Shown in pieces: positions 8,562 to 21,334 of a DNA stretch of 21,334 bases. Source of the stretch: a virus (lineage: Duplodnaviria; Heunggongvirae; Uroviricota; Caudoviricetes); IMG/VR virus record IMGVR_UViG_2531839668_000009; one strand, given 5' to 3'. Each line of letters begins with the position of its first letter. Positions within the stretch are counted from its first letter, which is position 1. Both the position numbers and the translations under genes were made by a program. A model generated the notes under the pieces. It did not search any database. It worked only from the letters and a program-made list of their open reading frames with translations, and was not told where the DNA came from.

Positions 8562-9039
8562 CGAATTTCTCCCGTGTAGAGGAACAGAGTTAAAAAGCCG
8601 GAAGCGGAATCAAATCACAGGATGACCATCTGCCAGTGGCTGGTCGTAAAAAAAAGGCCGCGCCATGCGCAGCCGAAAATAAAGGGATAACGATGATAGT
8701 TTGAGAAAAACAGAAATAACACTTTTGTGGCAAAGCATGGTGCCGGGTGCCTCCCGGTGAATTCAGTATCAGCACCTGAATCCGCGATTACCCCATATTC
8801 CTTCTTGCTGATTGCCCCACCGCACAGGGGGATTCACCATGCAGAAGTGTTTTTAATAAACAGCAAACAAAAAAATCAAGCATTATGCAGGCTGTTTCTT
8901 TTTATCACCGGCCACAGCAATACCATAATGCCGCAGACCAGCACCCCATCCGCCAGCACCGACATGATTCTGCTGGTGAAATCCACCATCACCACCAGAA
9001 ACAGCAGGAGTGCAGCCACAGTCAGGCGCAGTTTTACCG

Positions 9040-9641: not shown

Positions 9642-9718
9642 TGGTGCGTTGTACTGGGTTCGAACCAGTGACCGATTGCTTAGAAGGCAATTGCTCTGTC
9701 CGGCTGAGCTAAAAACGC
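9642..9718 (-). tRNA. argO: tRNA-Arg (anticodon UCU)
   Basis: Hand-folded cloverleaf on the - strand: acceptor stem with one mismatch, GGTTCGAACC T-arm, anticodon loop CTTCTAA, CCA end encoded. Symbol is by analogy with the Stx-phage ileZ-argN-argO cluster. Confidence 0.75.
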
Positions 9719-9731
9719 AGAATACCGATAA

Positions 9732-9808
9732 TGGACCGCCATCGGAGACTCGAACCCCGCGAAACCAGCTTCGAAGGCTGGCGTTCTATCCCGATGAGCT
9801 AATGGCGG
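9732..9808 (-). tRNA. argN: tRNA-Arg (anticodon UCG)
   Basis: Hand-folded: perfect 7-bp acceptor stem, T-arm CGGGG/TTCGAGT/CTCCG, anticodon loop CTTCGAA, CCA encoded; one mismatch in the D-stem. Confidence 0.7.
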
Positions 9809-9815
9809 TATGTGA

Positions 9816-9891
9816 TGGTGGCCCTTGCTGGATTTGAACCAGCGGCCTGGCGATTATGAGTCGCTCGCTCTCACCACTGAGCTAAAGGGCC
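9816..9891 (-). tRNA. ileZ: tRNA with CAU anticodon (Ile2-lysidine type or Met)
   Basis: Hand-folded: GGCCCTT acceptor, D-arm GCTC/GAGC, anticodon loop CTCATAA, T-arm GGTTCAAATCC, CCA encoded. Ile2 assignment is by analogy with ileZ of Stx-type phages. Confidence 0.7.
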
Positions 9892-10084: not shown

Positions 10085-10120
10085 CATGAAATATATGCCT
10101 TTCAATCTACTTTTGCAACA
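10085..10120 (-). promoter_or_regulatory. Candidate late promoter (pR'-like): -35 TTGCAA, 17-bp spacer, -10 TATATT
   Basis: Sigma-70-like hexamers read on the - strand about 60-70 nt upstream of the tR'-like terminator; any Q-utilisation site would lie here. Confidence 0.4.
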
Positions 10121-10163
10121 CTTTGCTTTGAAAATGCCGCCTTTTGTTTTGAACGCGTTCTCA

Positions 10164-10702
10164 TTACAAACAATAAAGCCTCACTAGCGCAATATTTTTT
10201 GTGCGCTGCTTCAGTATGCTGGTGGCGGTCTGTTCTCCCGGTATGATGTCGCTTTCACGGTATACGGAGCGGATTTTTTCCGCACGCAACCCCAGCGAAC
10301 GACGTAATACCGCTTCCGGTAGCGCGTCCGCCACCTGATTGCGGACCGCCCACCAGGATAATTCAGCCAGAGATAATTCACGCTCCTGCGTACCGCTTAT
10401 TGCGTGACGGATGATGTCAATCATCCAGGCGGCCAGATTCTGTTGAGCAAGTTGATCCAGTGAATCAGATGTCTGCTCCCGCAGCTGGTTGTCGCAGTGC
10501 CAGCACAACACCATCGCGCCGGTACCCGGGATTCACCTTCGCCAGCCAGAAACCAGGTGTGACCAGTTTTATCAACGACGCCATTTCTTTTGAGTTCCCA
10601 CAGCTCGTTGACAGCCTCTTCACGACTGATTCCAAGGCGAGCTGCCACCACATGTGAAGAGGCTTTTTTCAGTGCTTTCAGTGCGTCAGATACGGTTTCC
10701 AT
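10164..10702 (-). pseudogene. Candidate late-gene regulator at the Q antiterminator position, split by a frameshift
   Basis: Two overlapping - strand ORFs (10421..10702, 93 aa; 10164..10514, 116 aa) in different frames. The second frame opens at 10532, so the shift lies in about 10512-10535, around GGTACCCGGG. Q identity is positional only; no Q zinc-finger motif recognised. Confidence 0.4.
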
Positions 10703-10723
10703 TAAAATTTCCTCCGGACAAAA

Positions 10724-14547: not shown

Positions 14548-15009
14548 ATGGGCGTACTCGAAATTAGTGCTCTTAGAATTAAGATGCTTCTATTGGCAAA
14601 AGGCTGGAGCCAAGCAGAACTTGCGCGCAGAATTGGTATTGCTCAACAATCCGTCCAAAGGTGGGCTTGTGGCATCTCAAGCCCTACAGCAGCCAACCTA
14701 GATAAACTATCTGATGTGACTGGATTTCCTCAGTATTGGTTTTTCTTACCATTAAATGAAGAAAATAAGGACAGGGCACAGGATATATTAAAAATAACCC
14801 CTACGCAAAAGGAACTACTTCAAACATTTGAGGCATTTCCAGAGGAAGAGCAACAGCAAATGCTTAAAGATATGAAAGAGAAAAAAGAGACAATGGATCG
14901 TATAGTTGCAAAGTGGCTAGCAGCACAACAAAAAGTTCCTAGGCAGGATTACCAGCACTTACAAGACGAGGTTCACCATGAACACGGCCCTTTCACCAAT
15001 GGTTTCTGA
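14548..15009 (+). CDS. Second XRE-family HTH regulator, PaaR2-like, paralogous to the upstream repressor in its C-terminal domain
   Basis: 153 aa; classic XRE HTH (LAKGWSQAELARRIGIAQQSVQRW) and a C-terminal block ITPTQKELLQTFEAFPEEEQQQMLKDMKEKKETMDRIVAKWLA homologous to the upstream gene; 3' end overlaps the antitoxin start. Confidence 0.65.
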   Translation: MGVLEISALRIKMLLLAKGWSQAELARRIGIAQQSVQRWACGISSPTAANLDKLSDVTGFPQYWFFLPLNEENKDRAQDILKITPTQKELLQTFEAFPEEEQQQMLKDMKEKKETMDRIVAKWLAAQQKVPRQDYQHLQDEVHHEHGPFTNGF

Positions 15010-15169
15010 ATTTGAAACCGTCGAGCAAGAAAATAGTTATAACGAATGGCTGCGTGCAAAAGTGGCCGCAAGCCTTGCTGATCCACGTCCAGCCATTCCC
15101 CATGACGAAGTTGAACGCAGAATGGCTGAACGCTTTGCTAACATGCGCAAGGAACGGAGCAAACAGTAA
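14978..15169 (+). CDS. paaA: Antitoxin of the ParE-family toxin, PaaA2-like
   Basis: 63 aa; immediately precedes the toxin with TAA-ATG juxtaposition. Size and sequence agree with my recollection of PaaA2 from the paaR2-paaA2-parE2 modules of O157 prophages. Confidence 0.65.
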   Translation: MNTALSPMVSEFETVEQENSYNEWLRAKVAASLADPRPAIPHDEVERRMAERFANMRKERSKQ

Positions 15170-15457
15170 ATGTTACCGGTTTTATGGCTCGAAAGCGCAG
15201 ATGCCGACCTAGATAATATAACCAGCTATATTGCACGTTTTGACATAGATGCGGCAGAACGTTTGTGGAAACGCTTAAGGACTTGCGTCCTGCCATTATC
15301 TGAACATCCGTATTTATACCCGCCAAGCGACAGAGTGCCTGGTTTGCGTGAAACTGTAGCTCACCCCAATTACATCATTCTGTACCGCGTGACAATTTCA
15401 GGCATTGAAATTGTTAACGTAGTTCACGCCCGCCGACAGTTCCCTGTAACACCTTAA
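15170..15457 (+). CDS. parE: ParE/RelE-superfamily toxin
   Basis: 95 aa; typical RelE/ParE-fold pattern (…YRVTISGIEIVNVVHARRQFP). Confidence 0.75.
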   Translation: MLPVLWLESADADLDNITSYIARFDIDAAERLWKRLRTCVLPLSEHPYLYPPSDRVPGLRETVAHPNYIILYRVTISGIEIVNVVHARRQFPVTP

Positions 15458-15971: not shown

Positions 15972-16418
15972 CTAACCACAAAGGAATCGCATCAATTTGG
16001 ATTTTGCAGACAGTTTCTCTTGTTGTTCTACGGAGATTCCTATTTTGATCTGGGTTTTTAAGATTGCGATATCTTTAAGCGACGACCAAATATTATCATC
16101 TGTTTTTTCCAGGAGCTTTAACTGCATTTTCAATTCCGAATCGGAATATTTTTCTGCATCATCATAAAGCTGCAGATATTCTGCGGATTTTCTCATTGCG
16201 TTACCTGACTTTTGTCCGAATCCGTAAATCGTTTGAACGGTTGCTATCACAACAATGAGAACTCCAGAAACTTCAGGAATAAATCCACCAATGACAGATG
16301 AACCGAGGATAATACTCACCACTGAGAGAAGTTTATCGAGACGACCAGTCGCTACAGAGAATAGTTGTTCAAGAAAATAACCATATAAAACCCTGTCAAG
16401 AATATCATCCCGGTCCAT
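15972..16418 (-). CDS. Hypothetical membrane protein encoded antisense within the early-left operon (SieB position)
   Basis: 148 aa, ATG with AGGTGA RBS; two hydrophobic helices (LLSVVSIILGSSVIGGFIPEVSGVLIVVIATVQTIYGF) then a charged helical C-terminal region; AT-rich relative to neighbours. Confidence 0.55.
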   Translation of the reverse strand: MDRDDILDRVLYGYFLEQLFSVATGRLDKLLSVVSIILGSSVIGGFIPEVSGVLIVVIATVQTIYGFGQKSGNAMRKSAEYLQLYDDAEKYSDSELKMQLKLLEKTDDNIWSSLKDIAILKTQIKIGISVEQQEKLSAKSKLMRFLCG

Positions 16419-16893: not shown

Positions 16894-16951
16894 TTCTGGT
16901 GACATTTGGCGGTATCAGTTTTACTCCGTGACTGCTCTGCCGCCCTTTTTT
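16894..16951 (+). ncRNA. dicF: DicF small regulatory RNA
   Basis: TTCTGGTGACATTTGGCGGTATCAGTTTTACTCCGTGACTGCTCTGCCGCCC followed by a T-run matches the DicF sequence as I recall it, with a terminator hairpin at its 3' end; sits upstream of dicB as in Qin. Confidence 0.8.
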
Positions 16952-17121: not shown

Positions 17122-17310
17122 ATGGAAAAGTTATCATGTAATGCCAGCACGTCTGAACTTCGTTTCGAAATTGGCGTTATCACTGGAGACAAAACATTTA
17201 TTGAAGACGCCATTAAGCAGAGAAAACTCGAGCAGGACCTGTTAAATGAAGTATGCATTCCTTCAATGCTGGCTCGTCTGGACCTGCTGCAAAAAGGATA
17301 TAAACAATGA
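17122..17310 (+). CDS. dicB: DicB cell-division inhibitor
   Basis: 62 aa with a GAGGA RBS; shares FEIGV, EDAI and SMLARL blocks with K-12 DicB as recalled; track ORF 17017..17310 starts further upstream but the internal ATG is preferred. Confidence 0.8.
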   Translation: MEKLSCNASTSELRFEIGVITGDKTFIEDAIKQRKLEQDLLNEVCIPSMLARLDLLQKGYKQ

Positions 17311-17498
17311 ATACAACATTTGCACTCGTTCTGACAGTTTATCTTGTTTCCGGCGAATCTCTTGAGCTGGTGACTGGCTTATACGGTTCAATGAAAGAAT
17401 GCATGGCTGCAGCAGCAGAACAAAAAATTCCCGGTAACTGTTATCCGGTAGATAAAACTACTCACACTAATAATAACGAAATACCGGCAGGACTTTAA
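17307..17498 (+). CDS. ydfD: YdfD-like small membrane protein
   Basis: 63 aa, start overlaps the dicB stop; hydrophobic N-terminus (MNTTFALVLTVYLVSG). Confidence 0.65.
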   Translation: MNTTFALVLTVYLVSGESLELVTGLYGSMKECMAAAAEQKIPGNCYPVDKTTHTNNNEIPAGL

Positions 17499-17591: not shown

Positions 17592-20027
17592 ATGAGTAAA
17601 GTCTTTATTTGCGCCGCCATTCCGGACGAACAGGCAATAAAAGAAGAGGGCGCAGTTGCTGTAGCCACTGCCATTGAAGCCGGTGATGAACGCCGCGCCC
17701 GTGCCAAATTTACCTGGCAATTCCTGGAGCAATATCCTGCTGCTCAGGACTGCGCTTATAAATTTCTTGTCTGCGAAGATAAACCCGGCATGCCCCGCCC
17801 TGCTATCGACTCCTGGGATACCGAATATATGCAGGAAAACCGCTGGGATGAGGAATCCGCTTCCTTTATTCCGGTCGAACCAGAATCCGATCCTATTAAC
17901 GTCAATTTTGACAAGCTGTCCCTTGAAGTACAGAACGCGGTCCTGGTTAAGTTCGGTACATGTGAAAACATCACCGTTGATATGGCGATTGACGCGCAGG
18001 AATTACTGCAAGAAGACGTGGCTACCTTTGACGGACATATCGTTGAAGCACTGATGAAAACGCCTGAAATTAACGCTATGTATCCGGAACGCAAACTGTT
18101 CGCTATCGGATGGGTTAAACACAAATGTAAGCCGGGTACCAAATGGCCCGAAATTCAGGCTGAATTACGTAACTGGAAAAAACGGCAGGACGCAGAGCGC
18201 AAAGAGACTGGAAAATACACGTCTGTTGTTGATCTTGCCCGCGCCAAAGCCAACCGACAGCACACTGAAAACCCAGCAGAAAAAATCCCTCCTGTAACTG
18301 CCGCCATTCATCGCGAATACAAGCAGACATGGAAAACCCTGGACAGGGAGCTGGCCTACTATCTCTGGCCTGGTGATGCGGATGCCGGAAACATTGACGG
18401 CAGCATCCTTCGCTGGGCTAAAAATGAAGTTATCGCCAGAGATCGCGAAGACTGGAAGCGCATCTCCGCATCAATGCGCAAACAACCTGATGCGCTTCGC
18501 TACAGCCGCCAGACTATTTTTGGCCTTGTCCGTGAACGTCCGATCGACATTCACAAAGACCCTGTGGCACTGAACAAATACATTACTGAATACCTGACTA
18601 CAAAGGGCGTGTTTGAAGATGAAGGAAGAAATCAGAGCGCAACTGATACTCTCTCGTCGCCAGTACCAGAAACTGATGCAGTGGAAACGGCAATTCCGGA
18701 CAACGAAAAAACCGAATGCAAAGTGGAAGTCGAACCATCTGTAGAGCGTGAGGGGCCGTTCTACTTCCTCTTCACCGACAAGGATGGCGAAAAATACGGT
18801 CGCGCAAACAAACTTTCTGGTCTGGACAAGGCGCTGGCTGCCGGGGCTACTGAAATCACGAAAGAAGAATATCTTGCCCGCAAAAACGGAACATACACGG
18901 ACTTACCGCAAAATGTGGATACCGCTGAAGATTCCGTACAACCGGAGCCGGTAAAAGTTACCGCTGACGAAGTAAACAAAATTATGCAGGCAGCCAATAT
19001 CAGCCAGCCTGACGCCGATAAATTGCTTGCTGCATCACGTGGTGAATTTGTTGAAGGGATTAGCGATCCGAATGATCCGAAATGGGTGAAGGGGATTGAA
19101 ACCTGCGATTCTGTGAACCAGAACCAGTCAGAAACGGAACAGAACGACCAAAAAGCGGAACAAAACAGCCCAAATGCGTTACAAGACGAGCCAGAAACGA
19201 AACAATCCGAACCAGTAGCGCAACAGGAAGAGGAAAAAGTCTGTACCGCCTGCGGTCAGAGTGGTGGCGGCAACTGCCCTGATTGTGGCGCGGTGATGGG
19301 CGACGCAACCTGCCAGGAAACATTCGATGAAGAAAATCAGGCTGAAGCTCAGGAGGAAATGGAAGGCAGTGGCGGCGATCACTACCACACCACAGATAAT
19401 GAAAGTGGCGAGACAGCAAATCCCTTAATTAAGGTGAACGGTCATCGTGAAATTACATCCACCAGCAGGTTGTGGCACCATCTGATGATTGACCTTGAAA
19501 CAATGGGAAAAAATCCTGATGCCCCGATTATCTCAATAGGTGCAATATTTTTCGATCCGCAAACCGGAGAGATGGGGCCAGAATTCAGCAAAACTATCGA
19601 TCTGGAAACTGCTGGCGGAGTCATTGATCGGGACACCATTAAGTGGTGGCTGAAACAGTCACGCGAAGCGCAATCCGCCATTCTTACCGATGAAATCCCG
19701 TTAGATGATGCACTGCTGCAATTACGGGAATTTATCGACGAAAACTCCGGTGAATTTTTTGTTCAGGTCTGGGGTAACGGTGCAACTTTCGACAACGTGA
19801 TTTTACGCCGTTCATATGAACGGCAGGGGATCCCCTGCCCATGTCGTTACACCAATGATCGCGATGTAAGAACGATGGTTGCTCTGGGACTGGTGATGGA
19901 TTTCGACGCAAGAACGACTATTCCATTCGAAGGTGAACGCCATAACGCTCTGAACGATGCACGTTACCAGGCGAAATACGTTTCAGCCATCTGGCAAAAA
20001 ATGCTCCCGAGTCAGGCTGATTTTTAA
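17592..20027 (+). CDS. Large early-operon protein with C-terminal DEDDh (DnaQ/Rv2179c-like) 3'-5' exonuclease domain (YdfE-like)
   Basis: 811 aa. C-terminal about 180 aa carry Exo I (MIDLETMG), Exo II (VWGNGATFDNVIL) and Exo III (HNALNDARYQAKY) motifs. Upstream are an acidic low-complexity linker and a Cys4 motif (CTACGQSGGGNCPDCG). The N-terminal 550 aa have no motif I recognise. Confidence 0.7.
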   Translation: MSKVFICAAIPDEQAIKEEGAVAVATAIEAGDERRARAKFTWQFLEQYPAAQDCAYKFLVCEDKPGMPRPAIDSWDTEYMQENRWDEESASFIPVEPESDPINVNFDKLSLEVQNAVLVKFGTCENITVDMAIDAQELLQEDVATFDGHIVEALMKTPEINAMYPERKLFAIGWVKHKCKPGTKWPEIQAELRNWKKRQDAERKETGKYTSVVDLARAKANRQHTENPAEKIPPVTAAIHREYKQTWKTLDRELAYYLWPGDADAGNIDGSILRWAKNEVIARDREDWKRISASMRKQPDALRYSRQTIFGLVRERPIDIHKDPVALNKYITEYLTTKGVFEDEGRNQSATDTLSSPVPETDAVETAIPDNEKTECKVEVEPSVEREGPFYFLFTDKDGEKYGRANKLSGLDKALAAGATEITKEEYLARKNGTYTDLPQNVDTAEDSVQPEPVKVTADEVNKIMQAANISQPDADKLLAASRGEFVEGISDPNDPKWVKGIETCDSVNQNQSETEQNDQKAEQNSPNALQDEPETKQSEPVAQQEEEKVCTACGQSGGGNCPDCGAVMGDATCQETFDEENQAEAQEEMEGSGGDHYHTTDNESGETANPLIKVNGHREITSTSRLWHHLMIDLETMGKNPDAPIISIGAIFFDPQTGEMGPEFSKTIDLETAGGVIDRDTIKWWLKQSREAQSAILTDEIPLDDALLQLREFIDENSGEFFVQVWGNGATFDNVILRRSYERQGIPCPCRYTNDRDVRTMVALGLVMDFDARTTIPFEGERHNALNDARYQAKYVSAIWQKMLPSQADF

Positions 20028-20094: not shown

Positions 20095-20337
20095 ATGTAC
20101 GAATTAACTCTATCTCCAGCAGAGATTAAAGAGATCACGAAATACGAGCGATACACAAAACAGCAACACCAGTTAAGACTGCACGGCATCCCATTTGTAA
20201 TCGGCCCTAAAAACGAACCCATAGTTCTCCGCAGGGATATTCCACACGGTCTGACAACGATGCCAAAAACATCTGAACTGGTTTCTGCTGAACCCGATTT
20301 TGAGGCGCTGAACAATGGGAAGACCAAGAAAAAATAA
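20095..20337 (+). CDS. xis: Excisionase (Xis-like)
   Basis: 80-aa internal ATG of track ORF 19957..20337 (MYELTLSP...), basic C-terminus, 3' end overlapping the integrase start as in lambda xis-int. Confidence 0.5.
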   Translation: MYELTLSPAEIKEITKYERYTKQQHQLRLHGIPFVIGPKNEPIVLRRDIPHGLTTMPKTSELVSAEPDFEALNNGKTKKK

Positions 20338-21334
20338 AAAAGATAATGTACTGCCACCGCGGGTTAGATCGAATGGTTACAGTTACGTGTGGAAACCCGA
20401 AGGAAGTACAAGAAGTATAGGGCTAGGAAGAGTGCGGAAAACCAGCGTAGCTAAAGTCTGGCAAAATTATGAACTGGAAAAAGCAAAACTCCACAACATA
20501 ATGACCGTAGCTAAATTGTGGCACATGTTTATGGACTCCCCTGCATTTACAGAACTGGCCCCCCGAACCCAAAAAGATTATCGACAACATCAGAAGGCGT
20601 TGCTGATGGTATTCGGAAAAGTGCTTGCTGATAATGTCAAAACTGAGCAGGTAAGAATTTTCATGGATAAACGAGGGCTTGAGAGCAAGACCCAGGCAAA
20701 TCATGAACTGGCAAGCCTGAGTCGAGTATACGGGTGGGGATATGAGCGTGGGTATGTGAAGAATAACCCATGCAAAGGAGTCAGAAAATTCTCTCTTAAA
20801 GCCCGCACTGTTTACATCACCGATGAACAGTATGCGGCGATATATGCGGAAGCAATTCCACAGTTACGCATTGCAATGGAGATTTCCTATCTCTGTGCGG
20901 CAAGACTCGGTGATGTGCTTGAGTTGAAATGGCAGGATATTATGGATAAAGGGATCTACATTGAGCAAAACAAAACCGGCACCAAACAAATCAAGGAATG
21001 GTCACCGCGATTACGTACAGCGATCCAGTTAGCCCGAAATGTATCTTCCTGTACATGCGAATATGTGATCAATACAACCAAAGGCGGGAAAGTCATAGCT
21101 AAAACGCTGAATAACTGGTGGAATCAGGCTAAACGCGCAGCCGAGCAAAAAGTTGGCGTTCCGTTCGGGTGCAATTTTCACGACATAAAAGCCAAGGGGA
21201 TCTCAGATTACGAAGGCAGCAGTCGCGACAAACAAATTTTCAGCGGGCATAAAACAGAAAATCAGGTGTTGATTTACGATCGTAAAACAAAAATCACACC
21301 AACACTGGATTTGCCGCTCGTGGTTAGCAAGTAG
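20315..21334 (+). CDS. int: Lambda-family tyrosine integrase
   Basis: 339 aa; N-terminus MGRPRKNKKDNVLPP...NGYSY and core block ELKWQDIMDKGIYIEQNKTGTK resemble lambda Int (MGRRRSHERRDLPP...; EMKWSDIVDGYLYVEQSKTGVK); C-terminal H/R/Y region present; stop is the last codon of the window. Confidence 0.85.
   Translation: MGRPRKNKKDNVLPPRVRSNGYSYVWKPEGSTRSIGLGRVRKTSVAKVWQNYELEKAKLHNIMTVAKLWHMFMDSPAFTELAPRTQKDYRQHQKALLMVFGKVLADNVKTEQVRIFMDKRGLESKTQANHELASLSRVYGWGYERGYVKNNPCKGVRKFSLKARTVYITDEQYAAIYAEAIPQLRIAMEISYLCAARLGDVLELKWQDIMDKGIYIEQNKTGTKQIKEWSPRLRTAIQLARNVSSCTCEYVINTTKGGKVIAKTLNNWWNQAKRAAEQKVGVPFGCNFHDIKAKGISDYEGSSRDKQIFSGHKTENQVLIYDRKTKITPTLDLPLVVSK

Follow-up and report, generated by a model that had tools for sequence, protein, structure and literature searches.

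A RecE-type scaffold fused to a predicted DEDDh exonuclease domain in the dicBF-type operon of a defective lambdoid prophage

Background

The Rac prophage encodes RecE (exonuclease VIII), on which much of recombineering relies. RecE is a large protein encoded in an early-left operon before xis and int, with a C-terminal nuclease that follows an acidic linker. The same can be said of the protein examined here, an 811-amino-acid (aa) product encoded at positions 17592..20027 (+ strand) of a 21,334-nucleotide stretch of Caudoviricetes DNA (IMG/VR record IMGVR_UViG_2531839668_000009; the whole stretch is called the window below), which moreover contains a non-catalytic middle region homologous to that of RecE. 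The two differ in that the nuclease of RecE is a 5'-3' enzyme of the PD-(D/E)XK type, whereas that of the 811-aa protein is of the DEDDh type (i.e. predicted to act 3'-5'), in that the head of the protein is of the YdfE_N type and not of the Pfam Exonuc_VIII type, and in that no recT comes next.

By its nuclease domain, the protein belongs to the family of T4 DexA and Rv2179c, with which it shares the catalytic residues. T4 DexA is a 3'-5' exodeoxyribonuclease (PMC12153337), and an E. coli homologue of it, EcD, is reported to degrade 5-hydroxymethylcytosine (5hmC) DNA and to protect against T4 (Kang et al. 2025, PMC12153337). DexA, Rv2179c and EcD are small standalone enzymes, whereas here the domain forms the C-terminal quarter of a long protein and is without the extra loops of DexA. 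The orthologous locus of K-12 is found in the Qin prophage (dicF-dicB-ydfD-ydfE-int), where ydfE (b1577) is a pseudogene: unlike the gene in the window, it is truncated by IS2 at about aa 256, so that the nuclease and all else past that point are missing. According to a 2023 paper, only DicF, DicB and YdfD have been characterised in the dicBF operon (PMC10448788), which is otherwise well studied.

DnaQ-like 3'-5' nuclease genes in the early-left operons of lambdoids have been described by Zheng, Casjens, Davidson, Amundsen & Smith (2025, PMC12315714), some within Rec modules and 'sporadic' others very near int, the latter being the situation met with here; a fusion to a RecE/YdfE scaffold is not mentioned in the main text of that paper. 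The family as such is already annotated in RefSeq, PHROGs and Pfam, and it is published that lambdoids can have DnaQ-type nucleases near int. Two arrangements seem not to have been described, namely a RecE scaffold whose nuclease has been exchanged for one of opposite polarity and the same scaffold with a Rad52-fold annealase.

Results and discussion

A DEDDh nuclease on a RecE-type scaffold

Judging by its sequence, the 811-aa protein is a domain-swapped relative of RecE and the full-length form of K-12 ydfE. The C-terminal domain (aa 629-801; 19476..19994, +) is predicted to be a DEDDh (DnaQ-like) 3'-5' exonuclease, as it matches Pfam PF16473 (Rv2179c-like 3'-5' exoribonuclease domain) with an E-value of 3.4e-64 and 216.2 bits, compared to a cut-off of 27, over positions 1-177 of the 177 in the profile. 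The three Exo motifs quoted in the initial annotation are located at aa 632-639, 726-738 and 784-793, and the residues D634, E636, D734, H784 and D789 are invariant across six diverged relatives, down to 57% identity. T4 DexA is the sole solved structure found by sequence (8KEL/8KEN; E 1e-9 when the single domain was the query, and 1.6e-14, for 8KEL, in a profile search), and no RNase appeared in these searches. In the alignment to DexA, D634 corresponds to D7, E636 to the glutamate two residues after D7, and D734 to D119; as this alignment stops short of H186 and D191 of DexA, the assignment of H784 and D789 rests on the H-x4-D motif. Models of lambda-Exo and RecE-type nucleases (including PF12684, which RecE and its RecE-type relatives do match) gave no match in the 811-aa protein, and neither did residues 564-866 of RecE in a phmmer search. 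The initial annotation had placed the domain in the DnaQ fold rather than in that of lambda-Exo or RecE, and had considered that proper alignment might reveal the catalytic residues to be absent; with all five of them present and invariant, its assignment stands.

This particular allele carries a cluster of substitutions at aa 750-772 (19839-19907), reading PCPCRYTNDRDVRTMVALGLVMDFD versus PCPWRYYNDRDVRTIVELGKAIDFD in common E. coli alleles, by which it loses a Trp as well as the Tyr that aligns with W152 of DexA. The equivalent of W152 is T754 in this protein and Y in the common alleles, and the equivalent of DexA D169 is kept (D770).

The region preceding the nuclease, described in the initial annotation as some 550 aa devoid of recognisable motifs, turned out to be homologous to described proteins over most of its length, so that this part of the annotation has to be abandoned. 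K-12 ydfE (84% identity) corresponds to aa 1-256, and homologues that are 90-97% identical carry Pfam PF27430 (YdfE_N) and PF27432 (YdfE_C) in precomputed tables. BLASTP aligns aa 279-613 with residues 294-591 of RecE (E 2e-47, 37% identity), with near-identity over 'LLAASRGEFV.GISDPNDPKWVKGI', the GISDPNDPKW block and the ribbon 'C.ACGQ.GG.NCPDCGAVMGDAT', and the homology to RecE stops at about aa 613. In line with this, the NCBIfam equivalog model for RecE (NF007259, ExoVIII) reaches 229.5 bits, compared to a cut-off of 1269, and is matched at positions 271-600 of its 877 only. In the comparison with ydfE and recE that the initial annotation had in view, ydfE thus corresponds to the first part of the N-terminal ~610 aa and RecE to the later part, and the nuclease is unlike that of RecE.

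In an AlphaFold2 (AF2) model of the scaffold, for which 40 diverse sequences were used, confidence is high at aa 1-210, 240-345 and 386-435 and moderate at aa 458-500; the remainder is disordered, including the surroundings of the ribbon. In the YdfE_N-type head (aa 1-225; 17592..18266, +), a small alpha/beta domain precedes a helical one. The head is succeeded by a helical middle domain (aa 240-345; 18309..18626, +) with a predicted local distance difference test score (pLDDT) of ~95, which is common to RecE and all scaffold classes described below: from aa 279 onwards it aligns with RecE from residue 294, as a phmmer seed it matches RecE 293-351, and phmmer finds it in most representatives. 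Next comes a small domain of a beta-hairpin and a helix (aa 386-435; 18747..18896, +; pLDDT ~95), with the sequence 'REGPFYF...GRANK...EITKEEY', and then a pair of helices with the motif LLAASRGEFVEGISDPNDPKW (aa 458-500; 18963..19091, +; pLDDT 70-86), which is nearly identical in RecE.

The Cys4 zinc-ribbon-like motif CxxC-x8-CxxC (aa 551-574; 19242..19313, +) is nearly identical to residues 522-545 of RecE and reads C551-x2-C554-x8-C563-x2-C566. It is an optional module, present in only some of the relatives; its match to Pfam DZR is weak (E 0.26) and its AF2 confidence low. It is flanked by sequence that is predicted to be disordered and acidic (aa 502-615), and it leads into an acidic disordered linker (aa 575-628; 19314..19475, +; pLDDT <50), which is likely to be the junction of the domain swap. 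Both the Cys4 motif and the acidic linker had been recognised in the initial annotation.

A narrow family with exchangeable effectors

The scaffold family is narrow: when aa 1-620 were compared exhaustively by phmmer with 1.84 billion representatives, 239 matches only were obtained. Its members of traced source belong to the Enterobacterales, and all sequences found in a search for full-length homologues were from E. coli, with an identity of 90% or more. Domain mapping on the long representatives showed two alternative heads (of the YdfE_N or of the RecE/Exonuc_VIII type) plus shared middle modules, combined with at least four alternative C-terminal effectors, i.e. the DEDDh domain, the RecE-type PD-(D/E)XK nuclease (PF12684), a Rad52-fold annealase domain and a further domain here called class 4. 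Both types of head are found with each of these four effectors. The beta-hairpin domain at aa 386-435 is kept in DEDDh, RecE-nuclease, annealase and class-4 versions having the YdfE_N head, and the motif at aa 458-500 occurs in many representatives of every effector class. It follows from these combinations that the 'function-unknown' part of RecE is a reusable scaffold, to which nucleases of both polarities and an annealase have been attached.

The genes that come after the scaffold gene depend on the effector. RecE-nuclease versions are followed by recT (in K-12 and at locus L011), and in the one context of an annealase fusion that was examined, a Gp157-like gene and then xis/int come next, with no separate exonuclease. 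In DEDDh versions, xis and/or int come next with no gene in between wherever the downstream flank was available (the window, mEp460, HannyBb, E. albertii, Kluyvera and one Rac-like SieB-KilR-YdaE operon), which is why the DEDDh-type protein is not one half of an exonuclease-annealase pair ('SynExo'/EATR). No annealase family matched any early-left open reading frame (ORF) of the window, none lies between the stop codon of the 811-aa ORF and xis, and none is present in the RefSeq annotation of the whole prophage in a 99.98%-identical record (see below) or in the annotation of the viable phages that carry the gene. The lack of a recT/bet-like partner that had been noted for the window thus extends to every examined relative of like architecture.

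The class-4 effector is a conserved C-terminal domain of ~140 aa that ends in 'LTYQQQLTIAAL.GLCANPA' and has no Pfam or PADLOC match; its representatives are P0126, P0146, P0216, P0226, P0227, P0236, P0246, P0251 and P0270 (e.g. locus L009, 7001-9109), and the gene is placed between KilR and xis/int. In P0201 (703 aa), the N-terminal scaffold of RecE is joined in frame to RecT sequence within the zinc ribbon, apparently by a deletion joining recE and recT. The 'RecE-2' proteins without a nuclease domain that are reported by Zheng et al. (PMC12315714) may be the annealase or class-4 fusions.

Standalone relatives of the nuclease domain

A genome scan with the DEDDh alignment yielded 55 loci, in 43 of which the domain is standalone (180-290 aa), often just 5' of int. 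Such standalone homologues (L028, L032, L049, L062 and others) are ~189 aa long, 55-59% identical and typically ~270 nucleotides (nt) 5' of int, and they are widespread among prophages of Enterobacterales. The 3.5 kb upstream of the standalone genes hold 118 ORFs in the same orientation, among which Pfam annotation identified YfdQ/DUF2303 (upstream in 11 of the 43 loci), DUF551 (5), ParB-HTH (5), SSB (3), YfbR-like (3), RdgC (2), DUF2800 (2), ERF (2, plus one by phmmer), Sak4-like AAA_24 (2), Rad52 (1) and an Enc34 ssDNA-binding protein (1). These surroundings are a phage DNA-metabolism neighbourhood, in which a recognised annealase is nevertheless found near the DEDDh gene in only ~6 of the 43 loci.

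Two candidate identities for the 811-aa protein were tried and rejected. It is not EcD, the primers for which encode MIDTET... and ...TIPETY, and none of the 55 DEDDh loci encodes EcD. It was not recognised as a member of a defence system either, since PADLOC returned just a generic Cas-associated DEDDh match (E 1e-4).

Distribution and selection

Of 5426 complete E. coli genomes, 4789 (just under nine in ten) contain a match to the gene, and 3464 (about two thirds) have a near-complete copy, with a coverage of at least 80%; the same gene occurs in the isolated phages and elements mEp460_ev081, HannyBb, Tritos, PhiR42_1 and the PPompW elements. Compared to the mEp460 homologue, the ratio of nonsynonymous to synonymous substitution rates (dN/dS) is 0.21 for the whole coding sequence (CDS); by region, it is 0.12 in both the head and the nuclease and 0.14 in the ribbon, versus 0.89 in the linker (aa 581-628). 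Because it is carried by isolated phages, is widespread in E. coli and has a low dN/dS in its structured domains, the protein appears from its sequence record to be selected and functional, even in a decayed prophage.

Possible function

The exclusive tie of the scaffold to recombination effectors, the fact that the nearest solved relative of the nuclease is a DNase, and the DNA-metabolism neighbours of the standalone relatives all support a reading in which, during lytic growth, the RecE-type scaffold delivers a 3'-5' DNA exonuclease to DNA ends or to intermediates of recombination and replication, without a phage annealase; its probability is put at roughly 45%. The protein would be made from a pL-type transcript after prophage induction or infection, after which the scaffold would bring the nuclease to those DNA-end or replication-recombination intermediates, or to that host partner, to which RecE and the scaffold-annealase fusions are likewise brought. 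There, the DEDDh domain would shorten DNA from its 3' ends, using two metal ions for catalysis. As this type of phage is Chi-rich and without a Rec module, the nuclease would presumably rely on host RecBCD and RecA in place of a phage annealase.

Several points weigh against this. The literature yielded no functional study of YdfE or the 811-aa protein, structure comparison of the scaffold gave no informative match (its delivery role being deduced from domain combinations only), and in K-12, transcripts reaching ydfE were undetected under laboratory conditions (PMC10448788). 3'-5' DnaQ-type exonucleases usually inhibit homologous recombination, and the DnaQ-type genes near int are explicitly left outside the Rec module by Zheng et al. 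(PMC12315714). In addition, PF16473 takes its name from an exoribonuclease, and '3'-5' exoribonuclease' is a frequent NCBI product name for the homologues. It is from these names that another reading draws part of its support, i.e. that of a 3'-5' exoribonuclease like Rv2179c, the founder of the family, which would trim or degrade RNA in lytic growth (transcripts of the operon, precursors of DicF or RNAs of the host, for instance), the gene being co-oriented with that for DicF, which is itself matured by RNA processing. With a DNase and no RNase found among the solved structures, a scaffold that derives from a DNA recombination nuclease, and relatives that neighbour DNA-metabolism genes, such an RNA-directed role is quite improbable. 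The names themselves ('exodeoxyribonuclease VIII' and 'exoribonuclease' for proteins of this kind, and 'exonuclease' for PHROGs of the annealase fusions) were assigned by annotation transfer and are not to be relied on.

That DexA is the nearest solved homologue fits also with an exclusion, defence or nucleotide-scavenging nuclease of the DexA/EcD type, which would degrade the DNA of competing phages (e.g. cytosine-modified T-even phages) or of the host and would be retained in defective prophages as a benefit to the cell, like DicB. The example of EcD, the effect of the neighbouring DicB on phage infection (cited in PMC10448788), the fact that the gene is intact and under purifying selection although the prophage around it has plainly decayed, and its matches in most complete E. 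coli genomes all agree with such a function. EcD is a different, standalone protein, however, and the features of 5hmC-recognising enzymes of the HREX/EcD type, namely the residues proposed to read 5hmC (W152 and D169 of DexA) and a small standalone form, are not found together in the 811-aa protein, in which W152 is not conserved, although D169 is. With only the generic match in PADLOC, a gene position in a repressor-controlled lytic operon (and not at a site for morons expressed in the lysogen), and a RecE-type scaffold that would be left unexplained, a role in defence or scavenging is considered unlikely. It could also be that the fusion is an inert by-product of mosaicism, in which an unrelated DEDDh gene replaced the nuclease and recT of a RecE-family gene without any selected joint function. 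The junction is situated in a disordered, fast-evolving linker, the DEDDh domain is mostly standalone next to int, such that a simple deletion could fuse the two, and the copies in K-12 and Shigella are pseudogenes. Against this, the fusion occurs in several genera and in combination with either of two heads, viable phages have retained it, dN/dS is low in every folded domain, and the catalytic residues are invariant, which makes this the least probable of the explanations considered, at long odds.

The delivery of a DNA exonuclease by the scaffold is retained as the best reading. The initial annotation had proposed host takeover, anti-defence or nucleic-acid processing rather than recombination. 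No finding specifically favours host takeover, anti-defence or RNA processing, and the exclusion of recombination is not supported, in view of the fusion of the same scaffold to the RecE nuclease (with recT adjacent) and to a Rad52-fold annealase, and of the standalone relatives near DNA-metabolism genes; the domain evidence, as far as sequence comparison goes, ties the protein to DNA-end and recombination metabolism rather than to host takeover. A more general idea, offered as speculation that may well prove wrong, is that the RecE/YdfE scaffold serves the lambdoid phages of enterobacteria as an interchangeable delivery module for nucleases of either polarity (5'-3' or 3'-5'), a Rad52-fold annealase or another domain, with the DEDDh version providing an annealase-independent route of opposite polarity for DNA ends. 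If true, the N-terminal two-thirds of RecE would gain a testable function, in the form of one binding partner common to four effector classes. In any case, the modularity of the scaffold offers an experimental handle on the N-terminus of RecE, and it bears on how DNA ends are handled by lambdoids without a recombination module.

Gene neighbourhood and prophage

The CDS (17592..20027, +) was identified from the ORF list, PHROG 2082 and RefSeq: it starts with ATG, preceded by GAGG 10 nt 5' of the start, its product is 100% identical to RefSeq WP_000048584.1 ('3'-5' exonuclease'), and PHROG 2082 ('exonuclease') spans the protein end to end. The early-left operon reads, in order, repressor-like helix-turn-helix (HTH) genes, relBE, DUF1391, DicF, dicB, a ydfD-like DUF1482 gene, the 811-aa ORF, xis and int. 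The DicF small RNA (sRNA) lies at 16894..16945 (+; Rfam RF00039, 77 bits), dicB at 17122-17310 (+; Pfam DicB, E 7e-39) and the ydfD-like gene, immediately 5' of the 811-aa ORF, at 17307-17498 (+; Pfam DUF1482, E 2.8e-19), both genes being annotated in RefSeq as well. All of these are co-oriented with the 811-aa ORF, and no convincing terminator was found between them, which agrees with the earlier placement of the gene in a dicBF-type early-left operon. The stop codon is followed after 67 nt by xis (DUF4224; 20095-20337, +; PHROG excisionase, E 1.9e-23, and RefSeq) and then by the tyrosine integrase gene (20315-21334, +; RefSeq).

The genome of E. coli O157:H16 strain 98-3133 (NZ_CP051001.1) contains a segment with 99.98% identity to the whole window, which is there a lambdoid prophage integrated beside yccA. 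This prophage is without head genes, tail-fibre remains are present only as fragments, and it is defective given that the Q and DUF968 genes are truncated. The prophage is of the Qin/mEp460 type of lambdoids, and defective in this strain. Chi sites (GCTGGTGG) are found seven times in the window (4794, 5379, 9971, 10218, 13491, 19459 and 20048; six of the seven on the minus strand), compared to 0.68 expected from shuffles, and seven were reached in none of 100 shuffles; one site is within the exonuclease gene and another just past its stop codon. Phage HannyBb likewise has seven Chi sites in 45 kb. Lambdoids without a Rec module are reported to be a large, Chi-rich class that uses host RecBCD (Zheng et al. 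2025, PMC12315714), and the Chi richness of the window fits this class as it is described there.

Among the other features of the window are a gene for a type III effector of the NleB family, a match to the STnc100 sRNA (101 bits) and three tRNA genes (Ile, Arg, Arg), which together with the truncated Q and DUF968 genes occupy 137-1117, 8699-8871, 9645-9891 and 10104-10704 (minus strand). Within the early-left operon, the relB/relE-type toxin-antitoxin pair is located at 14978-15457 (+), and a 148-aa ORF on the opposite strand (15972-16418, -; PHROG 6315) lies between this pair and DicF.

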